Virus record (IMG/VR): IMGVR_UViG_3300045988_114077
Location: 1-41,513 of that record
Length of the DNA: 41,513 nucleotides
Strand: one strand, 5' to 3'
Source of the DNA: a virus
Shown: piece after piece, positions 3,070 through 41,513 of the stretch
How the letters are laid out: every line of letters begins with the position of its first letter
Numbering within the stretch: the first letter of the stretch is position 1
The notes under the pieces: model-generated
The model's database searches: none
What the model was told of the DNA's origin: nothing
What the model saw: only the letters and a program-made list of their open reading frames with translations
Program-made: the position numbers and the translations under genes

Positions 3070-3235
3070 TTTGTAAAATCTCCTTTTTGGTGATTCTCTT
3101 GCCGTCTCGCCGGATGGTGTATCCGGCGGACAGCATGGAAAGCTCGGTTTCCGGGGGATAGCGGATACCGGAATCCGTATACATAAGGGTGCGTCCATCG
3201 GAACCGTGGACGGCGTAGCGGGGCGGGTTACTCAT
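3023..3235 (-). CDS. Small hypothetical protein (70 aa)
   Basis: The ATG overlaps the upstream stop (ATGAGTAA). The 3' end overlaps the ssb start by 47 nt, so the call is uncertain. Confidence 0.4.
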   Translation of the reverse strand: MSNPPRYAVHGSDGRTLMYTDSGIRYPPETELSMLSAGYTIRRDGKRITKKEILQNAEQNHRNGPLDPRP

Positions 3236-4082
3236 ATTCCACCTGCAAGGGGGTAATGGCTGTGAGGTGCTCTGTGGCCCGGCAGTAGGGGCAATGGCCG
3301 CAGCGTGTAGCGGCAATACGTCCGGTTTTGATAGCCTGATAGCGGGGAGCCAGAGCCTCCACATCTGCCATGGCGTTCTGTAGGTCGGCATCGGGAATAA
3401 AGATGGCGAAAATGCGGGGGTGGGTCTCTTTGGTAATTCCGGTCAGGACAAAGGGGGCTTCCCGGCGGACAAGCCGCTGATAGATGGCGCCCTGAATGTC
3501 ATAGCCCCAGTACTGGGCGAAGCTGATGCGGCACTGGGTCTCGTCATTCCACACGGAATCCAGGGAACCCATGTATTTCAGGTCTACGATGATCTGACCG
3601 CCGAAGGGGACCAACTTCTTCACGTCCGGGAACTTCTCGCAGATTTTGCGGACCTGATCGGCGGACAGGAGGCTGTCGACCTTGCACTTGAAGGGGACCC
3701 CGGCAATGCGTCCGGTCTTGACGACCTGATGGCGGCCGGAGAGAAGGGCGTGGATTAAAGGCTCGTTGTCAAGCCGCTGGCAGGCTTCAAAGGCCCGGTT
3801 GAAATCCTCGTAAAACTCGCCGCTCTTCTTGCGAATCTCCGGATGAGCGGCCACCCAGGCGTTGAACTCGCCGGAAAAGTAAGCATCCACGAAGGAGCCT
3901 AAGAGAAGCGCCTTTGTGGGGGTGGGGGTGTAATCCCCTCGCAGCTCGGCCATTGCCGCGGCCTCGCACTCGCGGAATGCCTTGAACTGGGAATTGCTGA
4001 GATATGCCCAGTTGGCTTCACGGGAATAGTAATTCTCATTCGTGATCGGGAGCAGCTTCTTCTGTAGGGCCGGTCTGGACAT
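3228..4082 (-). CDS. PD-(D/E)XK (RecB/Cas4-like) exonuclease
   Basis: IVDLKYM and QGAIY motifs, plus a C-terminal Cys cluster CGHCPYC. It sits next to ssb in a recombination module. Confidence 0.75.
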   Translation of the reverse strand: MSRPALQKKLLPITNENYYSREANWAYLSNSQFKAFRECEAAAMAELRGDYTPTPTKALLLGSFVDAYFSGEFNAWVAAHPEIRKKSGEFYEDFNRAFEACQRLDNEPLIHALLSGRHQVVKTGRIAGVPFKCKVDSLLSADQVRKICEKFPDVKKLVPFGGQIIVDLKYMGSLDSVWNDETQCRISFAQYWGYDIQGAIYQRLVRREAPFVLTGITKETHPRIFAIFIPDADLQNAMADVEALAPRYQAIKTGRIAATRCGHCPYCRATEHLTAITPLQVEYE

Positions 4083-4584
4083 CCTCCGCTACCTCCTTTC
4101 CGGTCTGGCGAACCATGGCGCAATTGAAGCACAGGGGCACACCGAATTTTTTTGCGGTGTAATGGGCCATGTACTCGGCGGAGCGGCCATTGGCGGGGGT
4201 GATGGGGCCGCCGCAATCGGAACAGCGGGCGGCGGGGGTCTCCTTGGGTTTCCGGGGCCGGACGCGGACGGCAGAAACCAGCTCCCCGAATGCCTTGATA
4301 TTGTGCTCGATATAGAGCTGGACGCGGACGCCTTTCCAGTCCTCAAAGTAAGGGGAACCGGCTACCTTCTCGATGGCCTTGGAGCGGGCCACGTTCAGGA
4401 TCATGGGTTTCAGGTTCTCGGCAAAGTGGACCACGGCTTTCTGGGATTTGCCATCGGTGGTGGTGACGGTCTCGGACTGATTGACGGAAGCAATGGTCGC
4501 TACCTTCTCTTCGCCCTCGTTAAAATCCGCCTCGCCCAGATAGTTGGGGTCGGAGACAATTTTTTTCCAGTGGGTCTTTTCCAT
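4036..4584 (-). CDS. Conserved phage protein with a C-terminal zinc ribbon
   Basis: 182 aa. SD GAGGAGG. C-term CSDCGG...CFNC. Function unknown. Confidence 0.65.
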   Translation of the reverse strand: MEKTHWKKIVSDPNYLGEADFNEGEEKVATIASVNQSETVTTTDGKSQKAVVHFAENLKPMILNVARSKAIEKVAGSPYFEDWKGVRVQLYIEHNIKAFGELVSAVRVRPRKPKETPAARCSDCGGPITPANGRSAEYMAHYTAKKFGVPLCFNCAMVRQTGKEVAEDVQTGPTEEAAPDHE

Positions 4585-13575: not shown

Positions 13576-13913
13576 CTATTAAGGACGGCGGGCCGGGGCG
13601 CTGATGGTCCCCCAGATGGGGCATCATTTGATGACCCCCACCCCCGGGGGTAGCGGAAAAACGGGCGGGCCGCGCGCAGAAGGGTAGGCTTATATACGAC
13701 ACACTCTCCCCCACCCCCTCCAATGTCCGAACGGCCCGGGATGGTTTGACCGGGTACATCGTGCCCCCTGCCGTTGGAAACATGCCGGTGCTGATTGAAG
13801 CGGGCTTCTGTGCTGTGATTTCAAAAAATCAATGCGAGTAAATATGTAAAGCTATAATATTATATTAAAGCCTTATAGAGAATACCTAGCTATAATATTA
13901 TTATAATATATAT

Positions 13914-13933
13914 ATACTATACAGGTATAGTAT
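13914..13933. repeat. Palindrome atactatac-ag-gtatagtat within an AT-rich block (about 13830-13935)
   Basis: Read directly. TATAAT-like words are repeated around it. Confidence 0.6.
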
Positions 13934-13941
13934 TATAGTCC

Positions 13942-13962
13942 GGGCCGGGTGGGGCGGATGGG
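13942..13962 (+). other. Second G-quadruplex-type motif
   Basis: gggccgggtggggcggatggg. Confidence 0.5.
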
Positions 13963-13977
13963 TTCTGAAAAAAGTTC

Positions 13978-14006
13978 TTGACAAGGTGCAATAAGTTGGA
14001 AATGAT
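13978..14006 (+). promoter_or_regulatory. Candidate promoter TTGACA-17-AATGAT upstream of the tRNA-like gene
   Basis: Perfect -35 and a 4/6 -10. Confidence 0.45.
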
Positions 14007-14093
14007 ATGGCCGAGGGGATACCGGAAAAAGGGCTGGGCTGTTTCGTTTGGGCCTTTCCGAAAAAATAATAAACCTCTCTCAATATCGGGTAT

Positions 14094-14169
14094 GTGTGTG
14101 TAGCACAACTGGCGGTGCGCTGAATGCTATGTTCAGAGGGTGAGAGTTCGACCCTCTCCACACACGCCA
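14094..14169 (+). tRNA. tRNA-like gene, 76 nt with encoded CCA, anticodon position CUA (amber-suppressor-like), non-canonical anticodon loop
   Basis: Hand fold: acceptor gtgtgtg/cacacac (7 bp), D arm gcac-aactggcg-gtgc, anticodon arm ctgaa-tgCTAtg-ttcag, variable loop agggt, T arm gagag-ttcgacc-ctctc, discriminator g, CCA. Position 33 is G and position 37 is U, both atypical. Confidence 0.7.
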
Positions 14170-14186
14170 ACACGGAGGCGAAAGCG

Positions 14187-14342
14187 GTGGTAAATACGGA
14201 AGACGGATATATTCTCTGCCCGGTGTGCGGGAAGAAGACGAAGACGAAGGTGCTGCCGGAAACGGAGCTGAATCGGTTCCCTCTATACTGCCCGTGGTGC
14301 AAACGGCAGACCGTCATCGACCATCGCAAAAACGATACATAA
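14187..14342 (+). CDS. Cysteine-rich KTR-family small protein (51 aa)
   Basis: GTG start with GGAGG 8 nt upstream. ILCPVCGKKTKTKVLPETELNRFPLYCPWCKRQTVI matches the Cys-rich KTR pattern of Firmicutes, from memory. Confidence 0.75.
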   Translation: MVNTEDGYILCPVCGKKTKTKVLPETELNRFPLYCPWCKRQTVIDHRKNDT

Positions 14343-14356
14343 ACGCCGGAGCCTTG

Positions 14357-14408
14357 GAGCCAGAGCGGTGCACGAATTGACGTGCGCTGTTCTGGCTCTT
14401 TTTGTTTT
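14357..14408 (+). terminator. Intrinsic terminator T1 (compound hairpin plus T-run)
   Basis: Outer stem gagccaga/tctggctc, inner stem gcacg/cgtgc, then tttttgtttt. Homologous to T2 at 16810. Confidence 0.7.
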
Positions 14409-14425
14409 CCGGGGAGGTTTGGAAC

Positions 14426-15808
14426 TTGGCAGTGCAGGATAAGAACAAGGTCACGGCGGATTTTGGCAGGCCGAACAGTGATGCGCAGTGGAGATTTTTT
14501 GAATCCCGTGTGCGTTATACCTGTTACGGCGGCGCTCGTGGCGGCGGCAAGAGCTGGGCAACCAGAGTAAAAGCCGGGTTGGGTGCGCTGCAATATCCCG
14601 GAATCCGCATCCTGATTCTTCGCCGGGAATACGGCGATATGGAAGGAACGCTGATTGCTCCTCTGCTGGCAATGCTGCCGACAGAAATCTACACCTATAA
14701 CAAGTCCGAGCACATGATTACCTTCATGAACGGCAGCAAGATCAAGTTCGGCAATATGCCGGGCTACAGCGCCGCCGTGCAAGGTAAGTATCAGGGTCAG
14801 GAATATGAATGGCTCTTCATTGATGAGGCCACACAGTTCCTTGAAACGGAGTTCCGAGGGCTTGACGCAATCGTCCGTGGCGCGAATAAGATTCCGAAAC
14901 GTATCTACCTGACCTGCAACCCCGGTGGCCCCGGACACAACTGGGTGAAGCGGCTCTTCGTTGACCGGAAGTTCGAGAAGGGCGAGAACCCTAACGATTA
15001 TGTGTTTATCCCCGCCACGGTGGACGACAACAAAGACCTGATGGACGCTGACCCAAAATATGTCCGGACGCTGGAGCAGCTGCCTGATGACATCAGGAGG
15101 GCGCACCGATATGGTGACTGGAACGTGTTTTCCGGCATCTTCTTCACGGAGTTTCAGGACGGCGTTCATACCTGTACCCCATTTGCCATTCCGAGGCACT
15201 GGAAGCGATACAGAGCAATGGACTACGGTCTCGATATGTTTTTCTGTATCTGGGTGGCCGTGGATGAGAACGGACGATGCTATGTGTACCGGGAGTTCGC
15301 CAAAGAGGGTATAGTCGTTTCGGATGCCGCGAGGAAGCAGCTGGAATTGACCAGACCGGAAGAGATGATCATGGGGACCATTGCGCCGCCGGATATGTGG
15401 GCGCGGAACCGTGAAAGCGGGCGTACTCAGGCGGCAGCCTTTGCCGACAATGGTGTAGGGCTTATCAAAGCGAGCAACAACAGAATCCAGGGCTGGTCCG
15501 CCCTGAAAGAGTTCTTTAAGGTCCAGAACGACGGTAAGCCGGGGCTTATCATTTTCGATACCTGTAAGCAGCTCACGGACTGCATCAAGGGCTTGCAGCA
15601 CAGCAAGAAGATGCCGAACGACGTAAGCCTGGAGCCCCACGGCATCACCCACGGGCCTGATGCCTTGCGGTACTTTGCCAGCACCTATGTTCTTTCTGCC
15701 GAGAAGGAACAGGAGGTCATTTTGGAGGAGGACGAGCGCGACCAGCATCAGGACTACCGGTCCTATATGTGCGGCGGGCGGATATCCCGCAGCTATATCG
15801 GCGGATAA
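14426..15808 (+). CDS. terL: Terminase large subunit
   Basis: Walker A YGGARGGGKS, then LFIDEATQF. The C-terminal half is nuclease-like. The start is probably TTG at 14426 (GGAGG 8 nt upstream); the tracked ORF opens at 14402. Confidence 0.9.
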   Translation: MAVQDKNKVTADFGRPNSDAQWRFFESRVRYTCYGGARGGGKSWATRVKAGLGALQYPGIRILILRREYGDMEGTLIAPLLAMLPTEIYTYNKSEHMITFMNGSKIKFGNMPGYSAAVQGKYQGQEYEWLFIDEATQFLETEFRGLDAIVRGANKIPKRIYLTCNPGGPGHNWVKRLFVDRKFEKGENPNDYVFIPATVDDNKDLMDADPKYVRTLEQLPDDIRRAHRYGDWNVFSGIFFTEFQDGVHTCTPFAIPRHWKRYRAMDYGLDMFFCIWVAVDENGRCYVYREFAKEGIVVSDAARKQLELTRPEEMIMGTIAPPDMWARNRESGRTQAAAFADNGVGLIKASNNRIQGWSALKEFFKVQNDGKPGLIIFDTCKQLTDCIKGLQHSKKMPNDVSLEPHGITHGPDALRYFASTYVLSAEKEQEVILEEDERDQHQDYRSYMCGGRISRSYIGG

Positions 15809-25978: not shown

Positions 25979-26103
25979 ACTGGCGTGAAGCAGGGCGAAC
26001 CTGCGTGAACCTACAATGTAAAAATCTGTGGATTTTTTCGAATTTTTATTATTTTTTGAATTTTTTCATGCAAAAACGGCTTAGAAACTGCTTCACACGC
26101 ATG

Positions 26104-26136
26104 AGGTCACAGGTTCGAGTCCCGTAGTCTCCACCA
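26104..26136 (+). other. tRNA 3' fragment ending in CCA; probable attP core
   Basis: acagg-ttcgagt-cccgt T arm (one A-C mismatch), agtctcc acceptor strand, then a-cca. No 5' half lies upstream. An AT-rich bendable tract precedes it. Confidence 0.6.
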
Positions 26137-26225: not shown

Positions 26226-26246
26226 GTTACAAACCCGTTACAAACC
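26226..26246 (+). repeat. Two more direct GTTACAAACC repeats (P' arm)
   Basis: Copies at 26226-26235 and 26237-26246. The second overlaps the integrase stop. Confidence 0.6.
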
Positions 26247-27341
26247 GTGAGAGAATATGTCTTTCTGGTTGATAGCGTTCAGAATGTCGGATGGGTCCAG
26301 GTGGGTGTAAAATTTATCGGTAGTAGACAGGTCGGAATGACCTACCATGCGGCGGAGAAGCTGAGGGTTGACGCCTGCTTTTGTGGCCTTGGTGATGAAG
26401 GTATGGCGGCAGTCATAGGGCGTGTAGGCCGGAAGGTTCAGCTCCTGCATGAGTTCCTTCCATTCCCGCTTGACGTAGTTTGCATAGGTGTGGTTCCCGC
26501 TGTAGCCGTCTATGAGTTTCGGTTTCCCGGATGCCGCGGAAAGGATTTCATGATACGCGGAAAGCCCAAGCTGGGAAACGGCAATGACACGGTTTTTTCC
26601 TGCTTTTGTCTTGCTGCCCCCAACAAAATAGGTAGTGGTGCAATCTGCCGTAGCCGCCTGAAACAGTTCGTTTGGGCGGCAGCCGGTGGCAAGCAGGATC
26701 AGGGCGATTTTTGCGGCTGGGTTTTCGGACTTCTTCATTGCGTCTATCGCCTCATCAGGGAAGACAAGTCCGTCACTCTTCTGCGCTGCGGCAATGGTAC
26801 AGTAGCGTGCGCGGTTGACCTGCTGGATTTCCTCCAATACAGCCCAGTCGGAAAGCTGCCCGAAAAGCTGCAACACCTTTTCACAGGTGGACTTGGACTT
26901 CCCTTCCTGCTCCAGGCGGATGATAACAGCTTGGAATTCAGAGCGCCGGATGGTACGAAATTTCCGGTCGTGCAGTTCTTTGCAGTTGGAAAAGGCGGTT
27001 TTGTATGAGCCTTGGCCGTGGACGCTTATCGTCCGGTCGTGCTCTGGCTTCCATGCTTCGTAAATCTGTTTGAAGGTCCAGTTATACTTTTCTGTGATTG
27101 TGGCGTCTGTGAGGCGCTCAAGGGCTTTGACGGCATCTGTGCGGGTTTCATATGTGCCAATCAGTTGGCCGCCCTTGCGAACCACCCAGGGCTTGCGGCG
27201 TGAACCGGAGAGTTTTGAGATGTTGCCGGTTCCATTGGGACGTTTGCGGGTCTTTCGGGGCTGGGAAAGCTGCTTCTTTCCGCAATAAGGGCAGAAGACA
27301 GCATTCTCCGGCAGCTCCTTCTTGCATTTCTGACAGAGCAT
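26238..27341 (-). CDS. int: Tyrosine integrase with an N-terminal zinc ribbon
   Basis: MLCQKCKKELPENAVFCPYCGKK N-terminus. C-term CRHTFITKA...MVGHSDLSTTDKFYTHL gives the HxxR and Y catalytic motifs. Confidence 0.9.
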   Translation of the reverse strand: MLCQKCKKELPENAVFCPYCGKKQLSQPRKTRKRPNGTGNISKLSGSRRKPWVVRKGGQLIGTYETRTDAVKALERLTDATITEKYNWTFKQIYEAWKPEHDRTISVHGQGSYKTAFSNCKELHDRKFRTIRRSEFQAVIIRLEQEGKSKSTCEKVLQLFGQLSDWAVLEEIQQVNRARYCTIAAAQKSDGLVFPDEAIDAMKKSENPAAKIALILLATGCRPNELFQAATADCTTTYFVGGSKTKAGKNRVIAVSQLGLSAYHEILSAASGKPKLIDGYSGNHTYANYVKREWKELMQELNLPAYTPYDCRHTFITKATKAGVNPQLLRRMVGHSDLSTTDKFYTHLDPSDILNAINQKDIFSHGL

Positions 27342-27482: not shown

Positions 27483-30400
27483 TTAATAGTTCTCTTCGAT
27501 GAACTCCGCAATAGCTGCCTTGGTTTTATTTCCGCTGCCAGCATAGATGTGGTACAGCTGCTCGGCCATTTTCTTGTCAAAGCCCAGGTCGATAATACCC
27601 TGAACCTTATCATCCTTCAGGGACTTCCCGTCTCCGTCTGTGTCCGAATACAGGTAGGCATAATAGGTGTCGGCGTACTCCTTGGCAGAGAGACCCAGTT
27701 CCTTGCGGATGTAATCGTACTTGACCTCTGTCTTGTCGGGTTCCTTATCTTTCGGATCATAGTCCGGCATATAGAGCTTCATTGCGGTATCCAACTGAGC
27801 ATCGGAAAGCCCCTTGGTGGAGGCGACGCTTTGGAGCTGCACGGGCCGCTTGCCACGGTTCTTTTCCGGGATGGACTGGACAGCCTTAATAATGGACAGC
27901 GTTGTATCGGAAGCAAAGCCGCTGTTCCGGGCCTCAAGATAAATCCTGGTGTTGCCGCTGGACTTTTCAAGAACGGATTTCTTGGTGATACCAGGCATTT
28001 TGGAAATGGTGTCGTAGACGGCGTTCAGGGTGTCCGTAGCTTTCTTTGTGTCGTTCCCCAACTCCCATGCCTTTTCCAGGTCCCCTACTGCGGATGTGGC
28101 GTTGGATTTCAGAACATCACGGACGGTGTTAAAGACGATGGAGGTCTTTCCGCCGTCTTTCGGCACGTCCTTATAGTCTGTGACTGCCGCCCGGGCGAAC
28201 TGGGCGCCGTATTCCTTGGCCTTTTGCAACGCCTCCGCCTTCATCTCATCGGAGAGGTTATCAAAGCTGGCGTTTTTCAGAAGACCATCGTAGTACTCCT
28301 TGACGCGTTTGCCGTATTCCTTCTGGTAAGTTTCCCGCTGCTCTGCCGTGAGCTGCACATCCTCGCCGGAAGCGTCCTTGACCTTCAGCGGGGCCTGACG
28401 CTCGGGGTAGATGTTCTTGACGTCCGGGTTCTGGCTCAGTTCGTCAAGAGACTGGGCGGTTTTGTCCAGCTGGAGGCGGTGGGTATTGGTGGGGTCTAAG
28501 AAGTTGGAGACGAAACCGCCTCGCTTCTGCTCCTGCCCGAAGCCGTTGACCTTCTTCGGAAGCGTTTCGGAAGCGCCTGGAATCGCGTTCAGAATGCTGT
28601 TCTTGGCGTACTCGGCAGAATCCTTTCCACGGGTATCCCGATAATAGCCGTCCATAGTCTGAGCGGTTTGGCGGACAAACTGGGGGACAAAGGAGCTTGC
28701 CACATTGCCGCCGTACTCGGCGAGGGCGTTTTTCAAATCGCCTGTATCGCCGGATTTGACGGCATCGTAACCGTTGGAAAGCATGTCCTGGAGCTGCGTC
28801 AGACCGTCCATCATGGGGCTGTCCATAAAGGAGGAAACCGCAGAAGGGAAAGCGCTCTTTGCGTAGGCTTTTCCGACCCCCGCAAGGTTGGAGGACGGGT
28901 TCGCCATGAATTCCTTCACAGCATCGTCCTGGGCCAGCTCTACAGCAAGATACATCTGAGTATTGAATGGCTCCAGAAAATCCAGGCTTGTAACAACGTC
29001 CCCAGTTTGCCATTTCTCACTTCCACCTTCGGACGCACGGCCCAGAGCGGACCAGTTGATCTGAGCGCCGCTGAGACCTTGAGACTGGTCAAGGGCCTTT
29101 TTGTTTTTGTCGGAATCGTCATGAACCTGGATAATCCCGTTCGCCGCTGCGGTGGTCATGATGCCGATGAATGCAAGGCCGGTCATTCCACGCCCGAAAT
29201 CGCTGGCAGCCTGACGCTGGCGGGCTACGCTGATTTCCTTCCCGTGTCGTGCGTCGTGGATAATACGGGCGATTTCAATCGCGCCCTTGCCAACACCGGC
29301 AGTATAGTCAATACCGGTCTGCGCTACGTTCATGGGAACGCTGGCGAACGGCATTACCACATCTCCGACAGCCTTTGTAAAAGGCTCCGCGTCTGTGCCC
29401 TTGCCGATGTTCTTCATCTGCTGGGCAACGCGGGAGAGGTTGGAACCGTGGGTTTTGCCGTTTTCTTCCCAGGTGGCATCCTTGAAAGTGCGGCGGTTTG
29501 CTGTAAATTCCGCAAGCTCCGAAATGTCCGCGTCGCTGAGGTTGGAGTTTTTCAGACGGTTTAGACTGTCCGTAACGGCAGCGTTGGTGCCGCCCTCGAA
29601 TACTTTATCGGAGACTTCCAGGGCATAGCTCATATACTTCTGGTAGCCGTAGAGAACACGCATTGCAACATTGCCGTTGGAGCGGAAGGTTTTGCCGATG
29701 TATTTCCCGCTTCCGTTGGCACCGGTCGCGGAATCGAAAGCGGCGTTGGCATCCGTTTCAATGGGGACATTCAGCTCCACACACAGAGAAGCAAAGTCCA
29801 TAGAATCCTTGGCTGCGCTGAGATACTTACCGGGGAGCTTCAAGTCGTTGCCGACTGTGCGCTTCCCGGTGGCCTTGGCCATCAGGGAATCCACGAAGCG
29901 GCCTCCGATACTGTCACTGAAGGAATCCAAAAGGCCGGTGGCACTGTTGCCAGCAAGGTTCCGTTCAAATGTTTTCAGCGAGGAAAGCATTCCCTGCTTC
30001 CGCAAACCCTCCGCGATTTCCATTTTTCCGCGGGCACGGAAATCATCCGGCATGGCGGCGATCTGGGTGTTGGCGATTTTCTTCAGGGTATCGAAGTCCA
30101 GTTTGTTCAGAATGCGCTGGGCGTTTTTCGTAAGACGGCTGGACGTGCCGAACCATGCGGTGGTTTTCCGGGACTGGGCAATCTGGCGGATCACGTCACG
30201 CATAGCCTTGGTATCGCCCTCGGGAACGCTGTCAACGGCCATGGCGATACGGGTATACTCCTGCGTGACGTTGTTCTGCCACTGCTCGAAGGTGGGGCCG
30301 TTCTTGGTTTTCTTATAGGTGGTATCGCCCTGATCCATGGCAAGGAAGCGGGCGGTGGCGGATTCAGAGGCGGACATGGGGTCGGATGCGTCTTTCATTG

Positions 30401-33338
30401 TCCCAGAAATAGCGAATGCCTGAGCAACCTGACCGGCGTTTGTGCCTACCTTGGCAAGCTGCTTGTTCATGGCGGTCGTACCCTCCACGTCACCGGACTT
30501 GAACAGTTCCTTTGCCACAAGACGGCCCGTGGCAACGTCCTCAGCGGTCCAGGAATCGCCCTTGTTCATCAGGTAATCATATTCCGCGCGGACACGTTCC
30601 GGGCTGCTGGTGCGCTGCTGGGCGGTCCCCAGGGTATCCGTATTGTGCTTTACCTGATAATCCCCCGCTTCCCGGTCCTGCCGCAGGGTCTCCCGATATC
30701 CGGCGCGGATATCCGCGTCTTTATTTTGAAGGCCGGAATTGGTAACAGAGCGGGACTTTTCCACATCCCCGCTGGGTTCGGACTGCATACCCAAGGTATC
30801 AGGCTGGGCGGCTGCCGCCGGGTCTCCGGTCAGGGCAGCGGTCTGGTTCTGGATGGACTGGCGGGCGGCTTCCTGCTGGGTGCGGCGCTGGGTGGTGGAT
30901 TCCTCGACAAGGGCGGAGACAGTGTCTATTGGGGGGATGGCGGGCGGTTGCGGGATTTCGGTCTGCACTGCGCTATCTTCGGTGGGGATATCCACCAATG
31001 GGGGCTCGATCGCGCTCTGGCGGGGTGTATCCGGTTCAGCAGCTTGCGCCAGGGAGGAATCCGGCGCATCTGCTTGCTGGGGGAAAAGCGGGGCCGTGGC
31101 GATTGGCTGCGGAGCAGGTTCAGCCGATTGGACGGGATGTGGATTCCCCGAAAGCTCCGCGTCATAATCTGCATCGGATATGGACATCAGGCGTCTGAGT
31201 TCAACGGCTGCATCCTGAGCGCGCCGGAAAGCATCCTGGGAGACTGCCGCATTTGCTCTTTCCGTGTACGCATCATAGTTACCGTCCTGAATTGTGTCGA
31301 ACAGTTCGAGCATTCTTGCTTCCCTTGCCGTGTTGAGATACCCCTTCATGTAGATTTCCTTTTTCTCTTCCCGGCTAAGAGGATTATCTATAAGATAATT
31401 GCCGTCGCTTTCTCCGCGCTTTCTAGCTTTCTTCCGCTCTTTTTTTCGCTTGTCAAGGAAATTCTTCCATTCTTTGGGATCTTTGAAAGAGGAAACATCT
31501 ACGATGTCGTCAGTGGCACCGGACTGCTTGCGCTTCGCCACGGATTCCTCAACCGTTCGGGAGACTGTATCCAGAGGAGTTTCCGCCTGTGCCGGTTCCG
31601 GCTGAATATTACGGGGCTGCGCTTGCTCAATTGGCTGCTCCTGCGGGAGTTGTTGCGGATTTTGCAACAGCTGGTCGGGGGGAGGGGCCTGCCGTGCGGT
31701 CAGCTGCTCCGGGGTGGTTTCGGTGGGGGCGGTGTCGGGGGCTGCTTCCGGGGCGTTTTCCCCATCGAGAAGGGCCTGAGCGCGGCGGTTGCGGGCGTTG
31801 CCGATGGCGGTAGAGACACCTGCGGAGACACCGCCGGAGATACCCGCAACAAGAAGCTGCTGACCGGCCTGATCGATAAGGTCCTTATTGGCAAGGTGCT
31901 TTGCGTCGGCATAAGACATATTAGGGTCTTGCGCCATGTAGTTCTGGATATTCTGCTCATACTCGGAATTATCCTGAAGGATGGCCATATCCAGCAGCTG
32001 GGAGCCGATGAAGGACGCGCCCTCGGTGGTCGCTTCGATTCCGGCCTGTTTGAGGGCTGCTTTCAGGGCAGAGGTAGAACCTTCCTTGGCAAGGCCGAAC
32101 AGGTTGTCCAGAGGAATCTTATCCATGACATAGTCCAGAGCGGCGGATGAGGAAGCCAAAAGGGTTGCCTGACCGGAAGTCGCGCCACGCTCGGATGCCT
32201 CGGACAGGGTGCGGGTATACTGATTCATGGCGGAGGTGGCGGCGGCAACGGTTGGGCCGAGGGTAATAGCCTTTGCTGCGGATTCCAGAGCGCCGGTTCC
32301 CGCCTGATAAAGCAGAGACGCGCCCTTTCGTAGAATGTTTGGGTCGTCACCCTCAATCTGCTGCTGGATGTTCTGCTTGGAGGTATCGGCATAGACGTTC
32401 ATGGCATCGCCGTAAGTATAGGGGGACAGAGAACTATAGCGCCCCGTCCTGTTCTTGGCCTCATCCAGACGTCCGGCAAGCGCCACGACACCGGAAACAG
32501 GGCTGGTCACCAGATTCCCAACGGAGGTCAGGATGGACGCAAGAACGCCGTTGGAATTCTGCTTCGCAGCATCCTGAACGTTCTCCCGCTGCTCCAGCTG
32601 ATAGGAGCGGGTGCTTGTCTCGGCCAGCTGGGCCAGACGGTCAGCGCCGTACTTGCCCACAAGAGCCTGATACTCCCGGGGAATGGGTTCTTCCTCGCCG
32701 GGTTCCGGCCCCATTTCAGAGGAGGCGTCCTGACGCTGGATGCGAAGGTAGTTGCCGTAGGAACGTAGCTTTTTCCGCTCGTCCTCGGTCATGGCGTTCA
32801 GGTCGGCCATGTCCTTTTCGTAGATGGACTGGTCGTTGGATTTACTGCTGGAAGTTTCCTTCTGGGCCTGCTCCTTCCGGGCGGCGGCTTGCAGACGCTC
32901 AAGGGTTTCATCCTTTGGAGGCGTGTCGGACACGGCCTGCCCGGACTGGGGGGAATCGCCCCCGCCCTGTTCCCGCTGCATGGCAGCCTGACGCTGTGGG
33001 GATGCGATATAGGTGTCAAGGGTCTTCTGGGCGCTATCGGTCCCCTGCTGGTCTCTTTGGGCGGCATCTTCCGGCAACACCGTTTTGGGCGTCTCTGTGG
33101 AAGTGGGGGAGGATTTTTTCAGAGCCGGGGCGTTGCTGTTGACCTGCTGGGAGATGGCAGAAAGGAAAGGATTCTGAATTCCAGGGTCTGCGGCTGCGGT
33201 TGGGTTGCTTTGCCTATATCGCTGCTGTGCTTTTGCTGCCAATACCTTGATGTCCGCATCTGTGGCAGGCGCAGTTGTGGGATTCTCACCTGCGCGTTTT
33301 TGCAGTTCACGTACAAATTCGTCCTTAAAATTGCTCAT
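27483..33338 (-). CDS. Giant virion-associated protein (1951 aa); putative internal/ejection polyvalent protein
   Basis: Single uninterrupted ORF. Pro/Gln-rich linkers and internal repeats (PLDTVSRTVEESVAKRKQ and PIDTVSALVEESTTQRRTQ). No enzymatic motif recognised. Confidence 0.6.
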   Translation of the reverse strand: MSNFKDEFVRELQKRAGENPTTAPATDADIKVLAAKAQQRYRQSNPTAAADPGIQNPFLSAISQQVNSNAPALKKSSPTSTETPKTVLPEDAAQRDQQGTDSAQKTLDTYIASPQRQAAMQREQGGGDSPQSGQAVSDTPPKDETLERLQAAARKEQAQKETSSSKSNDQSIYEKDMADLNAMTEDERKKLRSYGNYLRIQRQDASSEMGPEPGEEEPIPREYQALVGKYGADRLAQLAETSTRSYQLEQRENVQDAAKQNSNGVLASILTSVGNLVTSPVSGVVALAGRLDEAKNRTGRYSSLSPYTYGDAMNVYADTSKQNIQQQIEGDDPNILRKGASLLYQAGTGALESAAKAITLGPTVAAATSAMNQYTRTLSEASERGATSGQATLLASSSAALDYVMDKIPLDNLFGLAKEGSTSALKAALKQAGIEATTEGASFIGSQLLDMAILQDNSEYEQNIQNYMAQDPNMSYADAKHLANKDLIDQAGQQLLVAGISGGVSAGVSTAIGNARNRRAQALLDGENAPEAAPDTAPTETTPEQLTARQAPPPDQLLQNPQQLPQEQPIEQAQPRNIQPEPAQAETPLDTVSRTVEESVAKRKQSGATDDIVDVSSFKDPKEWKNFLDKRKKERKKARKRGESDGNYLIDNPLSREEKKEIYMKGYLNTAREARMLELFDTIQDGNYDAYTERANAAVSQDAFRRAQDAAVELRRLMSISDADYDAELSGNPHPVQSAEPAPQPIATAPLFPQQADAPDSSLAQAAEPDTPRQSAIEPPLVDIPTEDSAVQTEIPQPPAIPPIDTVSALVEESTTQRRTQQEAARQSIQNQTAALTGDPAAAAQPDTLGMQSEPSGDVEKSRSVTNSGLQNKDADIRAGYRETLRQDREAGDYQVKHNTDTLGTAQQRTSSPERVRAEYDYLMNKGDSWTAEDVATGRLVAKELFKSGDVEGTTAMNKQLAKVGTNAGQVAQAFAISGTMKDASDPMSASESATARFLAMDQGDTTYKKTKNGPTFEQWQNNVTQEYTRIAMAVDSVPEGDTKAMRDVIRQIAQSRKTTAWFGTSSRLTKNAQRILNKLDFDTLKKIANTQIAAMPDDFRARGKMEIAEGLRKQGMLSSLKTFERNLAGNSATGLLDSFSDSIGGRFVDSLMAKATGKRTVGNDLKLPGKYLSAAKDSMDFASLCVELNVPIETDANAAFDSATGANGSGKYIGKTFRSNGNVAMRVLYGYQKYMSYALEVSDKVFEGGTNAAVTDSLNRLKNSNLSDADISELAEFTANRRTFKDATWEENGKTHGSNLSRVAQQMKNIGKGTDAEPFTKAVGDVVMPFASVPMNVAQTGIDYTAGVGKGAIEIARIIHDARHGKEISVARQRQAASDFGRGMTGLAFIGIMTTAAANGIIQVHDDSDKNKKALDQSQGLSGAQINWSALGRASEGGSEKWQTGDVVTSLDFLEPFNTQMYLAVELAQDDAVKEFMANPSSNLAGVGKAYAKSAFPSAVSSFMDSPMMDGLTQLQDMLSNGYDAVKSGDTGDLKNALAEYGGNVASSFVPQFVRQTAQTMDGYYRDTRGKDSAEYAKNSILNAIPGASETLPKKVNGFGQEQKRGGFVSNFLDPTNTHRLQLDKTAQSLDELSQNPDVKNIYPERQAPLKVKDASGEDVQLTAEQRETYQKEYGKRVKEYYDGLLKNASFDNLSDEMKAEALQKAKEYGAQFARAAVTDYKDVPKDGGKTSIVFNTVRDVLKSNATSAVGDLEKAWELGNDTKKATDTLNAVYDTISKMPGITKKSVLEKSSGNTRIYLEARNSGFASDTTLSIIKAVQSIPEKNRGKRPVQLQSVASTKGLSDAQLDTAMKLYMPDYDPKDKEPDKTEVKYDYIRKELGLSAKEYADTYYAYLYSDTDGDGKSLKDDKVQGIIDLGFDKKMAEQLYHIYAGSGNKTKAAIAEFIEENY

Positions 33339-34816
33339 CGGCCGCTGCCTCCTCCTGCTTTCTTTTTCGGCGGGTTCGCAAAAATGGTGCCGCCGCTGGT
33401 CGCCGCGGAAACAAAGTTTCCGGAAATAGGCGTTGTCGGCTTGCTTACATAGATGCCTTTGTCATTCTTCCCGATGACTGCATTACCCTTTGCGACCATA
33501 TCTGCCAGATTTACGGGGGAGATGGGGCCATAGCCCAGGTCGATTGTTCCGGGGATTACGCCGGACGTATCCGTTGCTGGCTTCGTGCTGCTTCCGGGCT
33601 TTTTGCTGGAGGAGCCGGAAAAACCAGACGCACCGGAATAGCCGGATGGTGCAGAGGCATTTCCCGCTGGGGCGGTGTGTTGCGGGAACATCTTGGCGAT
33701 CTGTTCCGGGGTGAAGCCGTAGAGTTTGTTCAGGATGGAGTAGTCGCCCCGCTTGGCGAATTGCTGGCCCAGCCACTTCTGCATATCCACAAGGTTATTC
33801 CGTTCGTCCTCGGCAGAACCATAGAGCTGCTGGGCACGCTTGAGTTCGTTTTCGGCGTTGGCGGATTCCAGCGCCTGACGGTAGGCCGTTCCGACATCGT
33901 AGACGGACATTCCGGCGGCGGCGTCCTTGCCCAGCTGGAGGCGGCGCAGGTCGGTCAGTTTGTCCTGGAGGTTCATCTCCCGGGCAAGGTCTGCATTGGC
34001 AGCCGTGCCGGAACCCATGCCGTAGGCCGCCTGGGCAAGCGCTGCATTCCGGGAACGCTGGAGGGCCGCGGTGTAGGCATCGGTGAGGGACTGGTCCGTC
34101 TGCTGCCGATTGGCGAGGGCCTGAGCTTCAAGGTCGGAAATCTTCTGATCCCGTTCCTGCTGCAATTTCAGCTGCTGGGCCTGATAATTGGCGTCGTAAA
34201 TCTTATTGATATCATCCTCATATTTGAGGACATCGGAACTGGTGGGGCCGGAAGGAGCGGGCTGCTGGGTGTTTCCGGCTGCCATATCGTCCAGAATGGA
34301 GTTGTCACCGTGGGACTTTGCGTAGAGGGCGGCTTCCTGACGAAGAGCTTGCAGACGCTGATCCTCGGATTTTGCGGCGTTGTAAAGCTGCTGTGCCCGC
34401 TGCAAATCATTCTCGGCGGTGGCCCGCTGAATCTCGGTCTGGTAGTACTGGGACAGCTGCTGCCGCTGGCGCTCAATCTCCGCCTCTGCCTGTGCCTGCC
34501 GGGCGTTCAGAGCGGAAACATCCTTCTGCTGCTGATTCTGCCGGGTAAGGCCCTGCTGCACCGTGGCACCATAAGAGAGGTTCTTATTGTTGGTGGTGGG
34601 CTGCTGGGCGGCTTTCTGGGCCTCCACATTGGTGCGGTTCACGTAGTCGTTCGTCTGATTCTGGACCGCCTGGGACTGGTCGTTCAGGAAAGCATTGCTG
34701 TCTTTCTGGTTCTGGTCCATAAGCCCCTGCTGGGAGTTCTGCCGCCGGTCATAGAGCTTGTTGATGTACTCCCCCGTGTTCAGGGCATCGGAAGCGGAGG
34801 TTTCCTTGTAGTTCAT
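33335..34816 (-). CDS. Gln-rich coiled-coil virion protein (493 aa) with an internal duplication
   Basis: ENDLQRAQQLYNAAKSEDQR...GDNSILDDM versus ENELKRAQQLYGSAEDERNN...GDYSILNKL. ATGA coupling to the next gene. Confidence 0.6.
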   Translation of the reverse strand: MNYKETSASDALNTGEYINKLYDRRQNSQQGLMDQNQKDSNAFLNDQSQAVQNQTNDYVNRTNVEAQKAAQQPTTNNKNLSYGATVQQGLTRQNQQQKDVSALNARQAQAEAEIERQRQQLSQYYQTEIQRATAENDLQRAQQLYNAAKSEDQRLQALRQEAALYAKSHGDNSILDDMAAGNTQQPAPSGPTSSDVLKYEDDINKIYDANYQAQQLKLQQERDQKISDLEAQALANRQQTDQSLTDAYTAALQRSRNAALAQAAYGMGSGTAANADLAREMNLQDKLTDLRRLQLGKDAAAGMSVYDVGTAYRQALESANAENELKRAQQLYGSAEDERNNLVDMQKWLGQQFAKRGDYSILNKLYGFTPEQIAKMFPQHTAPAGNASAPSGYSGASGFSGSSSKKPGSSTKPATDTSGVIPGTIDLGYGPISPVNLADMVAKGNAVIGKNDKGIYVSKPTTPISGNFVSAATSGGTIFANPPKKKAGGGSGR

Positions 34817-34831
34817 GCATTACACCTTCTT

Positions 34832-35248
34832 TCAAAAATAGCCGTAGGTGGGTGTGATTTTCTCCCAGGAGCCGGGGGAATGGTCCCGCAGCTGCTGGAA
34901 GGATTCCCGGTACTGGTTCAGGCAGAGGGCGGAAAGGGTCTCATTCTCCGTCTGGATGAGCTTTGCGGCCAGATAGGGGGGCAGGAGCACCAGAGACAGG
35001 CGGTCATCCAACTGGATAATCTGGTCAAAGTCCGGGTTCTGGTAGTCGGAAGCATCCAGAGCCATAGGCGGGTCTGCGGGGTCATAGCCGGAAGAGAAGG
35101 GATAGAGAACCGGGATGATGGAGTTGAGGATGGATATGGTGCGGAAGCGGTATTCATCGGTGTCCTCGGTGACGGTTGCGCCGGTGGATTCGTTCTGTTC
35201 ATCCAGAAGATGGATGGCCATATCATAGATTTGCCGCACGGTTGTCAT
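34832..35248 (-). CDS. Head-tail adaptor-like protein
   Basis: MTTVRQIYDMAIHLLDEQNE...YRFRTISILNSIIPVL is a pattern typical of gp6-like adaptors, from memory. SD AAAGGAGG. Confidence 0.5.
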   Translation of the reverse strand: MTTVRQIYDMAIHLLDEQNESTGATVTEDTDEYRFRTISILNSIIPVLYPFSSGYDPADPPMALDASDYQNPDFDQIIQLDDRLSLVLLPPYLAAKLIQTENETLSALCLNQYRESFQQLRDHSPGSWEKITPTYGYF

Positions 35249-35261
35249 AGAACAGCCTCCT

Positions 35262-40323: not shown

Positions 40324-40948
40324 CTATCCCCACTGTTCCGCCATTGCAGCGGCGATTCCGGGATACGTCTTGCTTCTGATCTTGGCGCGGTCAGGCCCAG
40401 GCGAGCACCAGTGGTTTTTCTCCCGCAGGCGCTGCGGCAATTGCAGCATTTCCTCCCGGACGTTTTTGGTCGGCACCAGCTTGGGCAAGCCTTTCAGCCA
40501 CAGACACGTGGCTTTCTGCTCCGGGTGCCCGAACATCCATGGCTGGACGATCTGGTCAGGCCTCACGTAGACGGACGACATGATTCCTACAGGGTTTTCC
40601 GTAGCAATCTTGTCAACGGGTGCCAGCGCAAACCGCATGAAGAACACGATGCTTTTCTGCTGGGCGAACGTCCGCTGCTTCTCCGGAAACCATCTGGCGC
40701 CGGACGCGGCCAGATCTGTACACGGCGGATGCGCGATCAGCAAATCCCACCGCCCCACATCATACACCTGTCCGTCCATGGTGGTCACTTGCCCCCCCCT
40801 CGATGGCCTTTAGGGCATCCCCCAGGATATGCCATTCAGGGTGCCCGCCGCTGGGTTCCTGAATATCGCAGGAATAGGCTTCATGCCCCCGCGCCCGGAA
40901 CGCCTTGCACACGGTTTGCGATTCCTCGCAGGCGATCAGAACTTTCAT
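40324..40948 (-). pseudogene. C5-cytosine methyltransferase-like gene split by a frameshift at a G8 tract
   Basis: N-part MKVLIACEESQTVCKAFRARGHEAYSCD (40760..40948). C-part ...WDLLIAHPPCTDLAASG...ATENPVG (40324..40788). Removing one G at 40792-40799 fuses the two frames. Confidence 0.7.
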
Positions 40949-41229: not shown

Positions 41230-41513
41230 CGGTTGCCACCTCCACAAACTCGCCGTTTTTCAGGGTATACGGCGTATCGGCCTTGATCCGCTCCCCGTCC
41301 ACGTACTCGGTCTTTACGCAAACAGGAACAGTCCTGCCTTTTTTGCCGTCATATTTCCACTCGGACAGAGTGATCCAGCAGCCAGCAGGAGCCTTGACTA
41401 CAGAATCGTTCCCTGCGCAGCAAATGACGGAATCGCTGCCGGTGCAATTGATCTGGGCGTAGTACCCGGAGCTGCCGATCTTGGCGGAGTCCCCGGAGCT
41501 GCCGATCTGGGCG
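41216..41513 (-). CDS. DUF7666-like repeat protein, C-terminal part
   Basis: My own translation: ...IGSSGYYAQINCTGSDSVICCAGNDSVVKAPAGCWITLSEWKYDGKKGRTVPVCVKTEYVDGERIKADTPYTLKNGEFVEVATDGES, with stop TAA at comp(41216..41218). Confidence 0.8.
   Translation of the reverse strand, partial: AQIGSSGDSAKIGSSGYYAQINCTGSDSVICCAGNDSVVKAPAGCWITLSEWKYDGKKGRTVPVCVKTEYVDGERIKADTPYTLKNGEFVEVATDGES
41483..41513. repeat. 31-nt terminal direct repeat identical to positions 1-31 (circular-contig overlap)
   Basis: Exact match read directly. Collapsing the overlap keeps the repeat-protein frame: 741 nt plus 267 nt gives 1008 nt. Confidence 0.85.

Follow-up and report, generated by a model that had tools for sequence, protein, structure and literature searches.

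The virus DNA analysed here (the window, meaning the whole stretch of 41,513 nucleotides) carries on its plus strand, at positions 14094 to 14169, a real 76-nt tRNA-fold gene, and the CUA triplet at its anticodon position is one state of a switching loop rather than a fixed suppressor anticodon, because nucleotides 36 to 38 switch among near-identical phages and sister alleles read CUU. Moreover, the odd loop and its swap-in alleles point, as judged from comparative data, to an arms race over tRNA-cutting defences and not to a changed genetic code. Our preferred reading, put forward tentatively and with somewhat less than even confidence, is that the RNA imitates a tRNA without decoding, as a mimic or decoy in the conflict with tRNA-targeting nucleases.

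A tRNA-fold gene with an aberrant anticodon loop

Evidence for the tRNA fold comes from ARAGORN, Rfam, a family covariance model, covariation and conservation. The gene reads GTGTGTG TA GCAC AACTGGCG GTGC G CTGAA TGCTATG TTCAG AGGGT GAGAG TTCGACC CTCTC CACACAC G CCA, and every item of the cloverleaf that an earlier note had drawn by hand is present: acceptor, D, anticodon and T stems of 7, 4, 5 and 5 bp, a D loop of 8 nt, a variable loop of 5 nt, a GAGAG-TTCGACC-CTCTC T arm, and a 3' end where an encoded CCA follows discriminator G73. Each of the 21 pairs in the stems is Watson-Crick, the nucleotides of the tertiary interactions (U8, A14, G18G19, G53, T54-T55-C56, A58 and C61) are all in place and form invariant columns in our tRNA alignment A1, and A15:U48 provides the Levitt pair. 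By inspection of the sequence, the features for charging are also intact (perfect acceptor stem, encoded CCA, G53-C61 and TTCGA). Charging and EF-Tu binding features, all retained, might be superfluous in a pure decoy, and to that extent count against one.

ARAGORN finds a tRNA at the same coordinates and with the same loop assignment, anticodon cta at position 34, in agreement with the CUA at positions 34 to 36 that the earlier note had read. In a search of the sub-region 13700-14500 the Rfam tRNA model (RF00005; gathering score 29) matches with 47.5 bits (E = 6e-9), a match that a gathering scan over the whole window had missed, and the family covariance model R1 scores 90.5 bits. Among 17 distinct homologous phage tRNAs the cloverleaf leaves 99.4% of cells paired, with changes on both sides in 15 of the 21 stem pairs; slid controls have covariation scores of 0.09-0.14 and shuffles 0.22, whereas the cloverleaf reaches 0.81, a value attained by 0 of 500 shuffles; the arm pairings are thus conserved with covariation. 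The minimum free energy fold (-27.4 kcal/mol, against -22.6 kcal/mol for the cloverleaf; z-score -1.46) is a structure other than the cloverleaf, as is usual for unmodified tRNA sequences, and folding thermodynamics alone is uninformative, giving no evidence either way for the tRNA fold.

The anticodon loop has 7 nt, U32 G33 C34 U35 A36 U37 G38, and this UGCUAUG loop confirms the anomaly noticed earlier: where a canonical elongator has U33 and a purine at 37, the window tRNA has G33 and U37. Neither a purine at 33 nor a pyrimidine at 37 occurs in any of the 125 distinct tRNAs of jumbo-phage arrays. ARAGORN's tRNA-Pyl label arises from the CUA triplet alone and was rejected. tRNA-Pyl has a 6-bp anticodon stem, a 3-nt variable loop, a small D loop without G18G19, no T-Psi-C, and pyl genes nearby; the stem is 5 bp and the variable loop 5 nt in the window tRNA, which also has G18G19 and TTCGA, and no pyl family was matched among the annotated neighbouring genes, which are all phage genes.

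Conservation, loop alleles and the slot before terL

The source virus is a temperate phage of gut Oscillospiraceae/Faecousia with a G+C content of 55%, and the tRNA gene lies between an ORF in the terS position and terL. A sigma-70-like promoter candidate (TTGACA-17 nt-AATGAT, 13978..14006, plus strand; 10 of 12 matches in a consensus scan) lies 88 nt 5' of the tRNA and may drive it; both of its hexamers are kept in a six-locus alignment that includes a relative with 74% identity. Between candidate and tRNA runs a leader (14007..14093, plus strand), which served as a local, near-neutral yardstick for the tRNA body. Downstream, on the same strand, follow a 51-aa, Cys-rich KTR zinc-ribbon ORF (14187..14342; Pfam PF14205, 1.8e-17), with a GTG start at 14187 preceded by GGAGG at 14174-14178, and an intrinsic-terminator-like hairpin of 19 pairs with a T run (14356..14409), which closes the tRNA-KTR unit before terL and is retained in relatives with substitutions on both arms. 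The tRNA and KTR gene thus form one putative co-transcribed unit with a common terminator; the KTR gene is also found in relatives bearing canonical tRNAs. The packaging/head module begins with terL (14426..15808, plus strand; Pfam Terminase_6N and Terminase_3, PHROG terminase large subunit), whose product of 460 aa has the same length as in cluster members.

The tRNA slot before terL is accessory. Relatives fill it with tRNAs for Lys UUU (L056), Thr UGU (L001), Asn GUU (L004), Ile GAU, Ser GCU or Met CAU, or with none, and those devoid of a tRNA keep the same terL arrangement. The tRNA of the window carries no host-type anticodon. Its nearest canonical relative in the slot is a tRNA-Lys(UUU) that shares the G1-C72/U2-A71/G3-C70/G73 end; the L054 orthologue carries A73.

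Orthologues were compared across about 20 samples and 22 contigs of the lineage, with conservation counted on 16 loci. Variable columns number 2 of 73 in the tRNA body but 22 of 87 (25%) in the leader (p = 3.7e-5), and make up 16% of terL within the lineage; by this comparison purifying selection on the body is strong. The change of A50-U64 to C50-G64 in the T stem of L054 is compensatory. The 5' part of the loop, U32-G33-C34-U35 (14125..14128, plus strand), is identical in 22 of 22 contigs and is kept even in L054 and L055, where the region is only 74% identical, while the triplet 36-38 (14129..14131, plus strand) is AUG in the window and UCA or UUA elsewhere, these being the only three alleles known. 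By sample, AUG (CUA) is found in 15, UCA (CUU) in 4 and UUA (CUU) in 2, the loops reading CUU being UGCUUCA and UGCUUUA on an identical body. Whether G33 and U37 are conserved or the loop varies freely, a question raised by the earlier note, has a divided answer: all orthologues have G33 within an invariant UGCU and a pyrimidine at position 37, but nucleotides 36 to 38 switch. The co-variation of position 36 with 37 and 38 fits "extended anticodon" tuning of a decoder equally well, and in this respect counts against a decoy.

Phages with identical TerL carry either the CUA or the CUU allele, as two haplotypes with zero intermediates. The L077 and L081 sequences are alike except at 5 of 1794 nt, three of which form the triplet, with flanks 99.7% identical, and conversely AUG is constant over 15 samples despite flank divergence of up to 13%. 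The alleles are linked neither to the upstream haplotype nor to the KTR allele, which fits recombination combined with balancing or diversifying selection. Judged by the invariant UGCU and the unchanged AUG across diverged flanks, the loop is not decaying. Positions 33:37 and 32:38 can pair in each allele (G.U/U.G in AUG, G-C/U-A in UCA, G.U/U-A in UUA), and RNAfold closes the isolated anticodon arm to a stem of 6-7 bp, although this complementarity does not discriminate, being found also in the canonical relatives' loops UUGCUAA and UUUUUAA.

Phage-to-phage comparison of tRNAs established loop-concentrated change in sister lineages as well, where orthologues with identical stems bear canonical or purine-33 loops: CUCAUAA in L046 against CGGAGGG in L011 (loop concentration p = 0.0015), and AUGAUAA, CUGAUAA and CUUAUAA in L084, L094 and L103 against UAUGUGA in L085 and L102 (p = 8e-6). 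Farther afield, neither the window tRNA nor its arm was matched in GenBank phages, lineage-specific arm or body patterns were not matched in IMG/VR, the arm pattern alone matched only non-tRNA sequence in IMG/VR, and an initial JGI metagenome scan gave no match to the arm pattern; a looser D-arm pattern is common to unrelated phage tRNAs and chance coding matches.

Stop-codon usage and competing readings

The genome is not recoded, as the earlier note had held. In ORF maps drawn with TAG as sense, coding density was not raised and ORFs were not joined; a TAG-split gene search and a codon-model gene map gave no supported gene interrupted by TAG; and independent standard-code gene calls on identical contigs were dense and continuous. 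Recoding was rejected, with no in-frame TAG in any gene; an apparent TAG junction between 4089-4346 and 3228-4082 proved spurious, the real gene lying at 4036-4584 in another frame. TAG ends 1 of 44 scored window genes, compared with 11 of 113 in relatives lacking this tRNA (p = 0.18), a depletion that, tried as a signature of suppression, is non-significant for the window; pooled over the lineage the count is 1 of 78 (p = 0.03), for genes that are orthologous and not independent. The sole gene terminated by TAG, at 40324-40788 with its stop at 40326-40324, ends normally, and its 53-codon read-through enters the next gene out of frame.

Against this background the loop may be read in several ways. 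A rather unlikely one is that the gene is a nuclease-proof decoder, a phage tRNA-Lys(CUU) in which G33 and Y37 block a host anticodon nuclease while decoding suffices for translation rescue, with the CUA allele being derived. In its favour, CUU is the reading of two of the three alleles; C34 never varies, nor does U35, on which LysRS chiefly relies for identity; a tRNA-Lys(UUU) that matches the gene in acceptor end and G73 is the nearest canonical occupant of the slot; all charging features are intact; and AAG is the phage's major Lys codon (372 AAG vs 199 AAA). Yet the commonest allele, in 15 of 21 samples, is CUA, which is unable to read AAG and is nevertheless kept across backgrounds up to 13% apart, and with G33 and Y37 the loop has lost the U-turn nucleotide as well as the modifiable purine, changes of which neither occurs in any of 125 other phage tRNAs. 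Substitutions of the anticodon arm that block cleavage are documented in phage tRNAs and lend the Lys decoder a precedent, but the evasion mutations documented, in the portion of the mycobacteriophage study drawn on here and for T5, keep U33 and R37 (PMC10264068; PMC12409363). The invariance of C34/U35, the two CUU alleles and the tRNA-Lys(UUU) as nearest slot relative fit a Lys-type decoder and stand as observations against a decoy. We also consider it improbable that the gene is an amber suppressor in a standard-code phage, with UAG read late in infection by its AUG allele as a sense codon, Lys or Gln being the probable residue, either as a first step to TAG recoding on the Borges et al. model or for read-through of host, rival-phage or own genes. 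CUA does occupy positions 34-36 of a 7-nt loop and is kept in 15 samples, the gene heads the late/packaging module with its own promoter candidate, and TAG is a rare stop (1/44 vs 11/113, and 1/78 in the pooled, non-independent genes). The CUA allele may have weak suppressor activity: U33 is said not to be strictly essential, amber suppressors substituted at U33, laboratory constructs that Bare et al. reportedly described in 1983, are said to keep some suppression, and in vitro U33 was reportedly not absolutely required for it. Standard-code relatives of recoded phages gain suppressor tRNAs after stop-codon depletion (bioRxiv 10.1101/2021.08.26.457843). Nonetheless, in-frame TAG occurs in 0 genes, the only TAG-terminated gene would be read through out of frame, the depletion in the window has p = 0.18, and G33 and U37 each predict poor decoding. 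Moreover, amber decoding is dispensable, since CUU replaces CUA in phages whose terL is identical and whose flanks match at 99.7%. HDV-like theta ribozymes are reported beside phage suppressor tRNAs; around this gene, beyond the tRNA itself, the Rfam search gave no credible family and nothing like a theta ribozyme, in so far as Rfam covers that ribozyme family. The option of a dedicated amber suppressor, which the earlier note had listed, is therefore not borne out: in-frame TAGs are lacking, the phage also exists without CUA, and the loop has neither U33 nor R37.

Quite improbable, in our judgement, is a tRNA shape that acts only as a processing or regulatory module, through RNase P/Z punctuation, stabilisation of a tRNA-KTR-terL transcript or mimicry of uncharged tRNA on host T-box leaders, with a loop irrelevant to translation. 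The leader-tRNA-ORF-terminator unit directly 5' of terL and the pattern of conserved body and changing loop would be expected on that account, but an irrelevant loop should drift singly, whereas UGCU is invariant and positions 36-38 appear only as discrete triplets on diverged backgrounds; tRNA-less relatives have the same terL arrangement, and neither a T-box nor any other family of regulatory RNA emerged from the Rfam search. The idea of a pseudo-tRNA in decay, left to drift after a gene once encoding a Lys or another tRNA became non-functional, might be suggested by the non-canonical positions 33 and 37 and by the relatives without a tRNA; given 21 Watson-Crick stem pairs, 2/73 variable columns in the body against 25% in the adjoining leader, a compensatory T-stem change and the recurrence of the same loops in many samples, it has very little probability, and the conservation data would seem effectively to refute it.

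Other candidates were rejected on the sequence itself. Quadruplet GCUA:UAGC decoding or +1 frameshift suppression would need a loop of 8 nt, as in the laboratory constructs that decode UAGN (PMC4764823), and the window loop has 7 nt. Of the shifted registers (GCU at 33-35; UAU, UUC and UUU at 35-37; the stop anticodons UCA and UUA at 36-38), none is canonical in all alleles, and by our own estimate chance alone would supply a stop anticodon at a rate of about 0.4 per allele. Programmed switching from a donor cassette or template repeat was dismissed, the window having no second copy of the arm; nor was an RT or DGR-like gene seen in the window annotation. The loop complement CATAGCA, considered as a target site, occurs at 7 sites where 3.4 would be expected; the loop itself on the minus strand accounts for one, and the rest are patternless. 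An attP core was rejected, since the tRNA gene is full length and 12 kb separate it from the integrase gene; the integrase gene has a different, tRNA/tmRNA-like 3' fragment (26078-26136) beside it.

A proposed tRNA mimic or decoy and known systems

The preferred reading, a tRNA mimic or decoy, had been one of the options of the earlier note and is now favoured with regard to the RNA itself, whose body is under strong purifying selection and whose stems covary; its target is inferred. The gene would give a transcribed and processed tRNA-shaped molecule that in this lineage is probably no longer mainly a decoder. Because acceptor, D, T and elbow regions all remain intact, RNase P, CCA and elbow readers and tRNA-binding proteins would still handle it as a tRNA. 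The anticodon arm would have been rebuilt, with U33 replaced by G33 and purine 37 by a pyrimidine unable to take the loop-opening modifications of purine 37, and nucleotides 36-38 would be a specificity cassette held as the balanced alleles AUG, UCA and UUA. Such an RNA could act as an uncleavable substrate mimic, that is, a decoy or competitive inhibitor, of a host- or prophage-encoded nuclease or sensor that reads the anticodon arm of Lys-type or ANN-decoding tRNAs, and different triplet alleles would match different nuclease variants. The Lys UUU, Thr UGU and Asn GUU tRNAs of the slot, types that match the targets of tRNA-cleaving defences, count for the decoy, as does the genome's lack of any sign of a need for amber decoding; PADLOC finds no defence genes in the window, which counts against it. 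We regard as possible, but doubtful, the fuller scheme of a non-decoding decoy whose hairpin is shut by G33:Y37 and U32:R38 and tuned by its 36-38 cassette to nuclease or sensor variants, with alleles kept by balancing selection and moved by short-tract recombination, and with the A33/G33 sister lineages as members of the same class.

The PARIS nuclease AriB targets Lys UUU, Thr UGU and Asn GUU tRNAs, recognises the 3' side of the anticodon loop and stem (U36-A41), and is overcome by T5 tRNA variants that rescue infection, and non-productive complexes of viral tRNA with the immune effector have been raised as a possibility (PMC12409363). If the present RNA is a counter-defence tRNA, accessory phage tRNAs in both systems have an anticodon arm unlike that of the target, which the defence nuclease therefore does not cut; the three AriB-target tRNA types fill this slot in relatives (L056, L001 and L004), and the recognition region U36-A41 is where the present lineage varies. 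In contrast, T5 tRNAs keep U33, A37 and the host anticodon, and decode, whereas the window lineage has G33 and Y37, an anticodon that switches between CUA and CUU, and alleles polymorphic in one phage population; moreover, the host here is a Firmicute, with neither PARIS nor another nuclease found. For mycobacteriophage tRNAs, van den Berg et al. (2023, PMC10264068) propose that mutations in the anticodon loop allow escape from anticodon nucleases of the VapC type. The two cases share the idea of loop divergence under pressure from a loop-cutting toxin, on evidence that is comparative only, and differ in that the mycobacteriophage tRNAs retain their anticodon and a canonical U33/R37, with no allele switching within a population described in the part of that study drawn on here (PMC10264068).

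With the recoded crAss-like and Lak gut phages (bioRxiv 10.1101/2021.08.26.457843; Peters et al., PMC9523058) the window phage shares a gut habitat, CUA at positions 34-36 and a late-gene location, and by count (1 of 44 scored genes) TAG seldom serves as a stop, much like in those standard-code relatives that may represent a stage before recoding (bioRxiv 10.1101/2021.08.26.457843). It differs from them in a genome without in-frame TAG and with 55% rather than low G+C, in a CUA that is not fixed among orthologues and in a loop without U33 and R37. A further parallel is offered by pseudo-tRNAs and tRNA-like RNAs in non-decoding roles. The tRNA-Other of Bacillus cereus and the non-proteinogenic tRNA-Gly of Staphylococcus have a full cloverleaf, deviant universal positions and non-decoding roles, but are chromosomal and deviate elsewhere, for example in the T loop or in identity elements. 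We know of no pseudo-tRNA or tRNA-like RNA with allele-switching loop triplets.

The current view is that phage tRNAs serve against tRNA-cleaving immunity, the known cases being ordinary decoders with few substitutions in the arm. In the present gene the whole body is under strong selection while two near-universal loop features are given up, and a block of 3 nt that takes in one anticodon base is exchanged between genomes identical in other respects. Calls of tRNA-Pyl or tRNA-Sup(CUA) in phage genomes are no evidence of recoding. If the gene is a decoder, G33/Y37 loops would be functional in nature, and readers of a sense codon (AAG) and of a stop codon (UAG) would coexist as alleles, a view of suppressor origin before recoding. 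If it is a decoy, it would represent a new viral way to disarm tRNA-targeting defences and would offer a handle for finding the nucleases of gut Clostridia.

Fold and detection of the tRNA

The tRNA gene at 14094-14169 (+) reads GTGTGTG-TA-GCAC-AACTGGCG-GTGC-G-CTGAA-TGCTATG-TTCAG-AGGGT-GAGAG-TTCGACC-CTCTC-CACACAC-G-CCA, in exact agreement with the anatomy described in the earlier note; its anticodon loop is U32 G33 C34 U35 A36 U37 G38, and the nucleotides of the tertiary interactions are all there (U8, A14, G18G19, G53, TTC, A58, C61 and the A15:U48 pair). ARAGORN, proposed there as a check, finds one tRNA in the window, at the same coordinates and with anticodon cta at position 34. Its label for the gene, 'Pyl', is due solely to the CUA triplet, and a tRNA-Pyl identity is rejected. 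The Rfam tRNA model scores 47.5 bits on the neighbourhood of the gene (gathering score 29). A gathering-threshold scan of the whole window returned no match, while the same tRNA reached that score in an 800-nt stretch; the miss is a filter effect, relevant to other windows too.

Folding by free energy does not by itself yield the cloverleaf of the window tRNA, and the case for the fold is therefore built on comparison. When 17 distinct tRNAs of the family are aligned, 99.4% of cloverleaf cells are paired, and 15 of the 21 pairs have changed on both sides; in slid controls pairing falls to 33-50%. Judged by sequence comparison, the cloverleaf of the family is real and selected.

Loop alleles and non-canonical loops in relatives

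Orthologues were found through the closest TerL (large terminase) clusters and through exact copies of the window head protein and of the upstream 153-aa ORF; the tRNA on these contigs shares the GTGTGTG acceptor stem and the body of the window copy. The loop occurs as UGCUAUG, as in the window (CUA at 34-36; 15 samples), UGCUUCA (CUU; 4 samples) and UGCUUUA (CUU; 2 samples, more distant relatives), the last accompanied by a compensatory A50-U64 to C50-G64 change and by A73. We name these alleles AUG, UCA and UUA after nucleotides 36-38. The earlier note had asked whether G33 and U37 are conserved: G33 is fixed, U32-G33-C34-U35 being invariant, and position 37 is always a pyrimidine, but U37 itself varies, as do positions 36-38 together.

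Of the 1969 columns in an alignment of 16 loci, 370 are variable, and only five of these fall inside the tRNA: positions 36-38 and a single column each in the D loop and the T loop. The body of the tRNA is much better conserved than its flanks, with 2 of 73 variable columns; the neighbouring leader has 22 of 87 (p=3.7e-5) and terL 16%. Phages with identical TerL protein carry AUG or UCA. Between the contigs L077 (UCA) and L081 (AUG), 1794 aligned bases contain 5 differences: the three bases of the triplet and two sites that flank the tRNA, 53 and 72 nt away. The tRNA allele shows no linkage to the upstream haplotype or to either allele of KTR, a small zinc-ribbon ORF downstream, and no AUG-UCA intermediates were seen among the orthologues. 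We read AUG and UCA as old alleles maintained under selection, with short-tract recombination through a highly conserved tRNA moving them between genomes. A programmed triplet switch is unsupported, a donor copy being absent from the window and a reverse transcriptase from the annotated genes. At the level of sequence, what is conserved is the body and the non-canonical loop frame, rather than the anticodon.

tRNA genes occupy the same slot in 18 IMG/VR relatives and 9 MAG prophages, found via TerL (Thr UGU, Ile GAU, Ser GCU, Asn GUU, Met CAU, Phe and Gln; none in some). Many share the D arm, variable loop and T loop of the window tRNA; the acceptor and anticodon stems are different. In the slot upstream of terL, the canonical tRNAs of L001-L018, L044-L059 and L084-L091 almost all read ANN codons (Ile GAU/UAU, Ser GCU, Asn GUU, Thr UGU, Met CAU, Lys UUU), the exceptions being Gln UUG and Phe GAA. 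ANN-decoding tRNAs form the t6A37 class.

Sister lineages also carry slot tRNAs lacking U33. CGGAGGG (G33; L011 3727-3802) belongs to an orthologue of the L046 tRNA-Met (CUCAUAA), the three variable stems being identical, and UAUGUGA (A33; L085 1015-1090 and L102) to orthologues of L084, L094 and L103 (AUGAUAA, CUGAUAA, CUUAUAA); in both sets the counterparts have canonical Met or Ile loops on the same stems. Differences between these orthologues are concentrated in the loop (p=0.0015 for L011/L046; 8e-6 for the L085/L102 set). C33 is found in UCGAUAA (L015 2260-2335 and L051) and CCAGAAA (L052 2444-2530). Among 125 distinct tRNAs from unrelated jumbo-phage arrays, none has a purine at position 33 (118 have U, 7 have C), and all have one at position 37.

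Genetic code and possible function

That the genome is not recoded, as first proposed, is borne out: TAG as sense gives no better ORF map, and no supported gene is split by TAG. The codon-model gene map has 25 TAA, 18 TGA and 1 TAG stops; in relatives without a window-type tRNA, TAG accounts for 11 of 113, a difference that is not significant for the window (p=0.18). The sole clearly TAG-terminated gene, at 40324-40788 (-), lies immediately upstream of a Dam-family gene and is a 154-aa ORF whose PC motif (HPPCTDLAASG) is C5-cytosine-methyltransferase-like; its TAG end is normal, and read-through would enter the next gene out of frame. A code-15 suppressor is rejected on the tests available, and a quadruplet decoder because the loop has 7 nt.

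With G33 the U-turn uridine is lost, and a pyrimidine at 37 is unable to bear purine-37 modifications. In tRNA-Lys, t6A37 breaks the U33:A37 intraloop pair. G33:Y37 and U32:R38 pairing is possible in all three alleles, and in isolation the arm closes into a stem of 6-7 bp, although this formal complementarity is shared by the canonical loops UUGCUAA and UUUUUAA of relatives. Between a suppressor, a mimic or decoy and a structural RNA, the readings first offered, a mimic or counter-defence role is now favoured over a dedicated suppressor, since CUA is not conserved among orthologues. We tentatively propose a tRNA mimic or decoy, its specificity set by the 36-38 cassette, because the slot contents of relatives (Lys UUU, Thr UGU, Asn GUU) match the targets of a characterised tRNA nuclease, PARIS AriB, which recognises U36-A41, because T5 tRNA variants rescue infection, and because viral tRNAs have been suggested to form non-productive complexes with effectors (PMC12409363).

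It is unlikely that the tRNA is instead a nuclease-proof Lys-type decoder: C34-U35 is invariant, CUU alleles exist and a neighbour tRNA-Lys(UUU) has the same acceptor end, but CUA is prevalent. A real but dispensable amber suppressor, which would fit the pre-recoding model of Borges et al., is equally doubtful. We see little chance that the gene is a processing or regulatory module, and its decay is very improbable. As a mimic or decoy, the window tRNA would come closest in its way of working to the counter-defence tRNAs of T5 and mycobacteriophages, which have canonical loops, whereas it does not. Neither purine-33/pyrimidine-37 phage tRNAs nor allele-switching loop triplets were described in the literature covered by a non-exhaustive search.

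Genome context and integration

The phage is temperate, as it encodes a tyrosine integrase, holin and amidase, and its relatives occur in gut samples, as prophages or contigs of Oscillospiraceae/Faecousia MAGs. A circular genome is probable, given a 27-nt tandem array across the window ends (1-395 and 41450-41513; 14.6 copies, 94% matches) with 31 identical terminal nt; the assembly break probably lies within a minus-strand gene of 9-aa repeats. The minus-strand left arm holds recombination and replication genes. Downstream of the tRNA follow the 51-aa Cys-rich KTR ORF (14187-14342), large terminase, major head protein and P22-like portal. A promoter candidate (TTGACA-17-AATGAT) 88 nt upstream of the tRNA and a 19-pair terminator hairpin 3' of KTR are kept in relatives. 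KTR, with homologues in L053, L062 and L086, has two strongly diverged alleles (~30% of columns variable) whose recombination is independent of the tRNA allele; the start that gene callers give it, an ATG within the tRNA (72-73 aa), is probably wrong. An AT-rich block at 13837-13941, between the 153-aa terS-position ORF and the promoter candidate, contains three ~19-nt AGCTATAATATTAT-type repeats at 35-38 nt spacing and several palindromes. Conserved even in a 74%-identity relative, the block may serve as a pac/cos site, operator or late-promoter region.

Three large ORFs (1951, 493 and 617 aa) at 27483-37115 (-) adjoin the integrase and have no Pfam, PHROG or PADLOC match; because no recognisable tail genes turned up elsewhere, they may encode new tail or injection proteins or have another role. 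Beside the integrase gene (26238-27341, -) also lies a tRNA/tmRNA-like 3' fragment, ...GGTTCGAGTCCCGTAGTCTCCACCA, at 26078-26136 (+), with 11.3 bits in the family model and a weak Rfam tmRNA match. With this separate fragment adjoining the integrase, the window tRNA is rejected as attP. The fragment is probably the attP core, in which case integration would target the 3' end of an ssrA or tRNA gene in the host.
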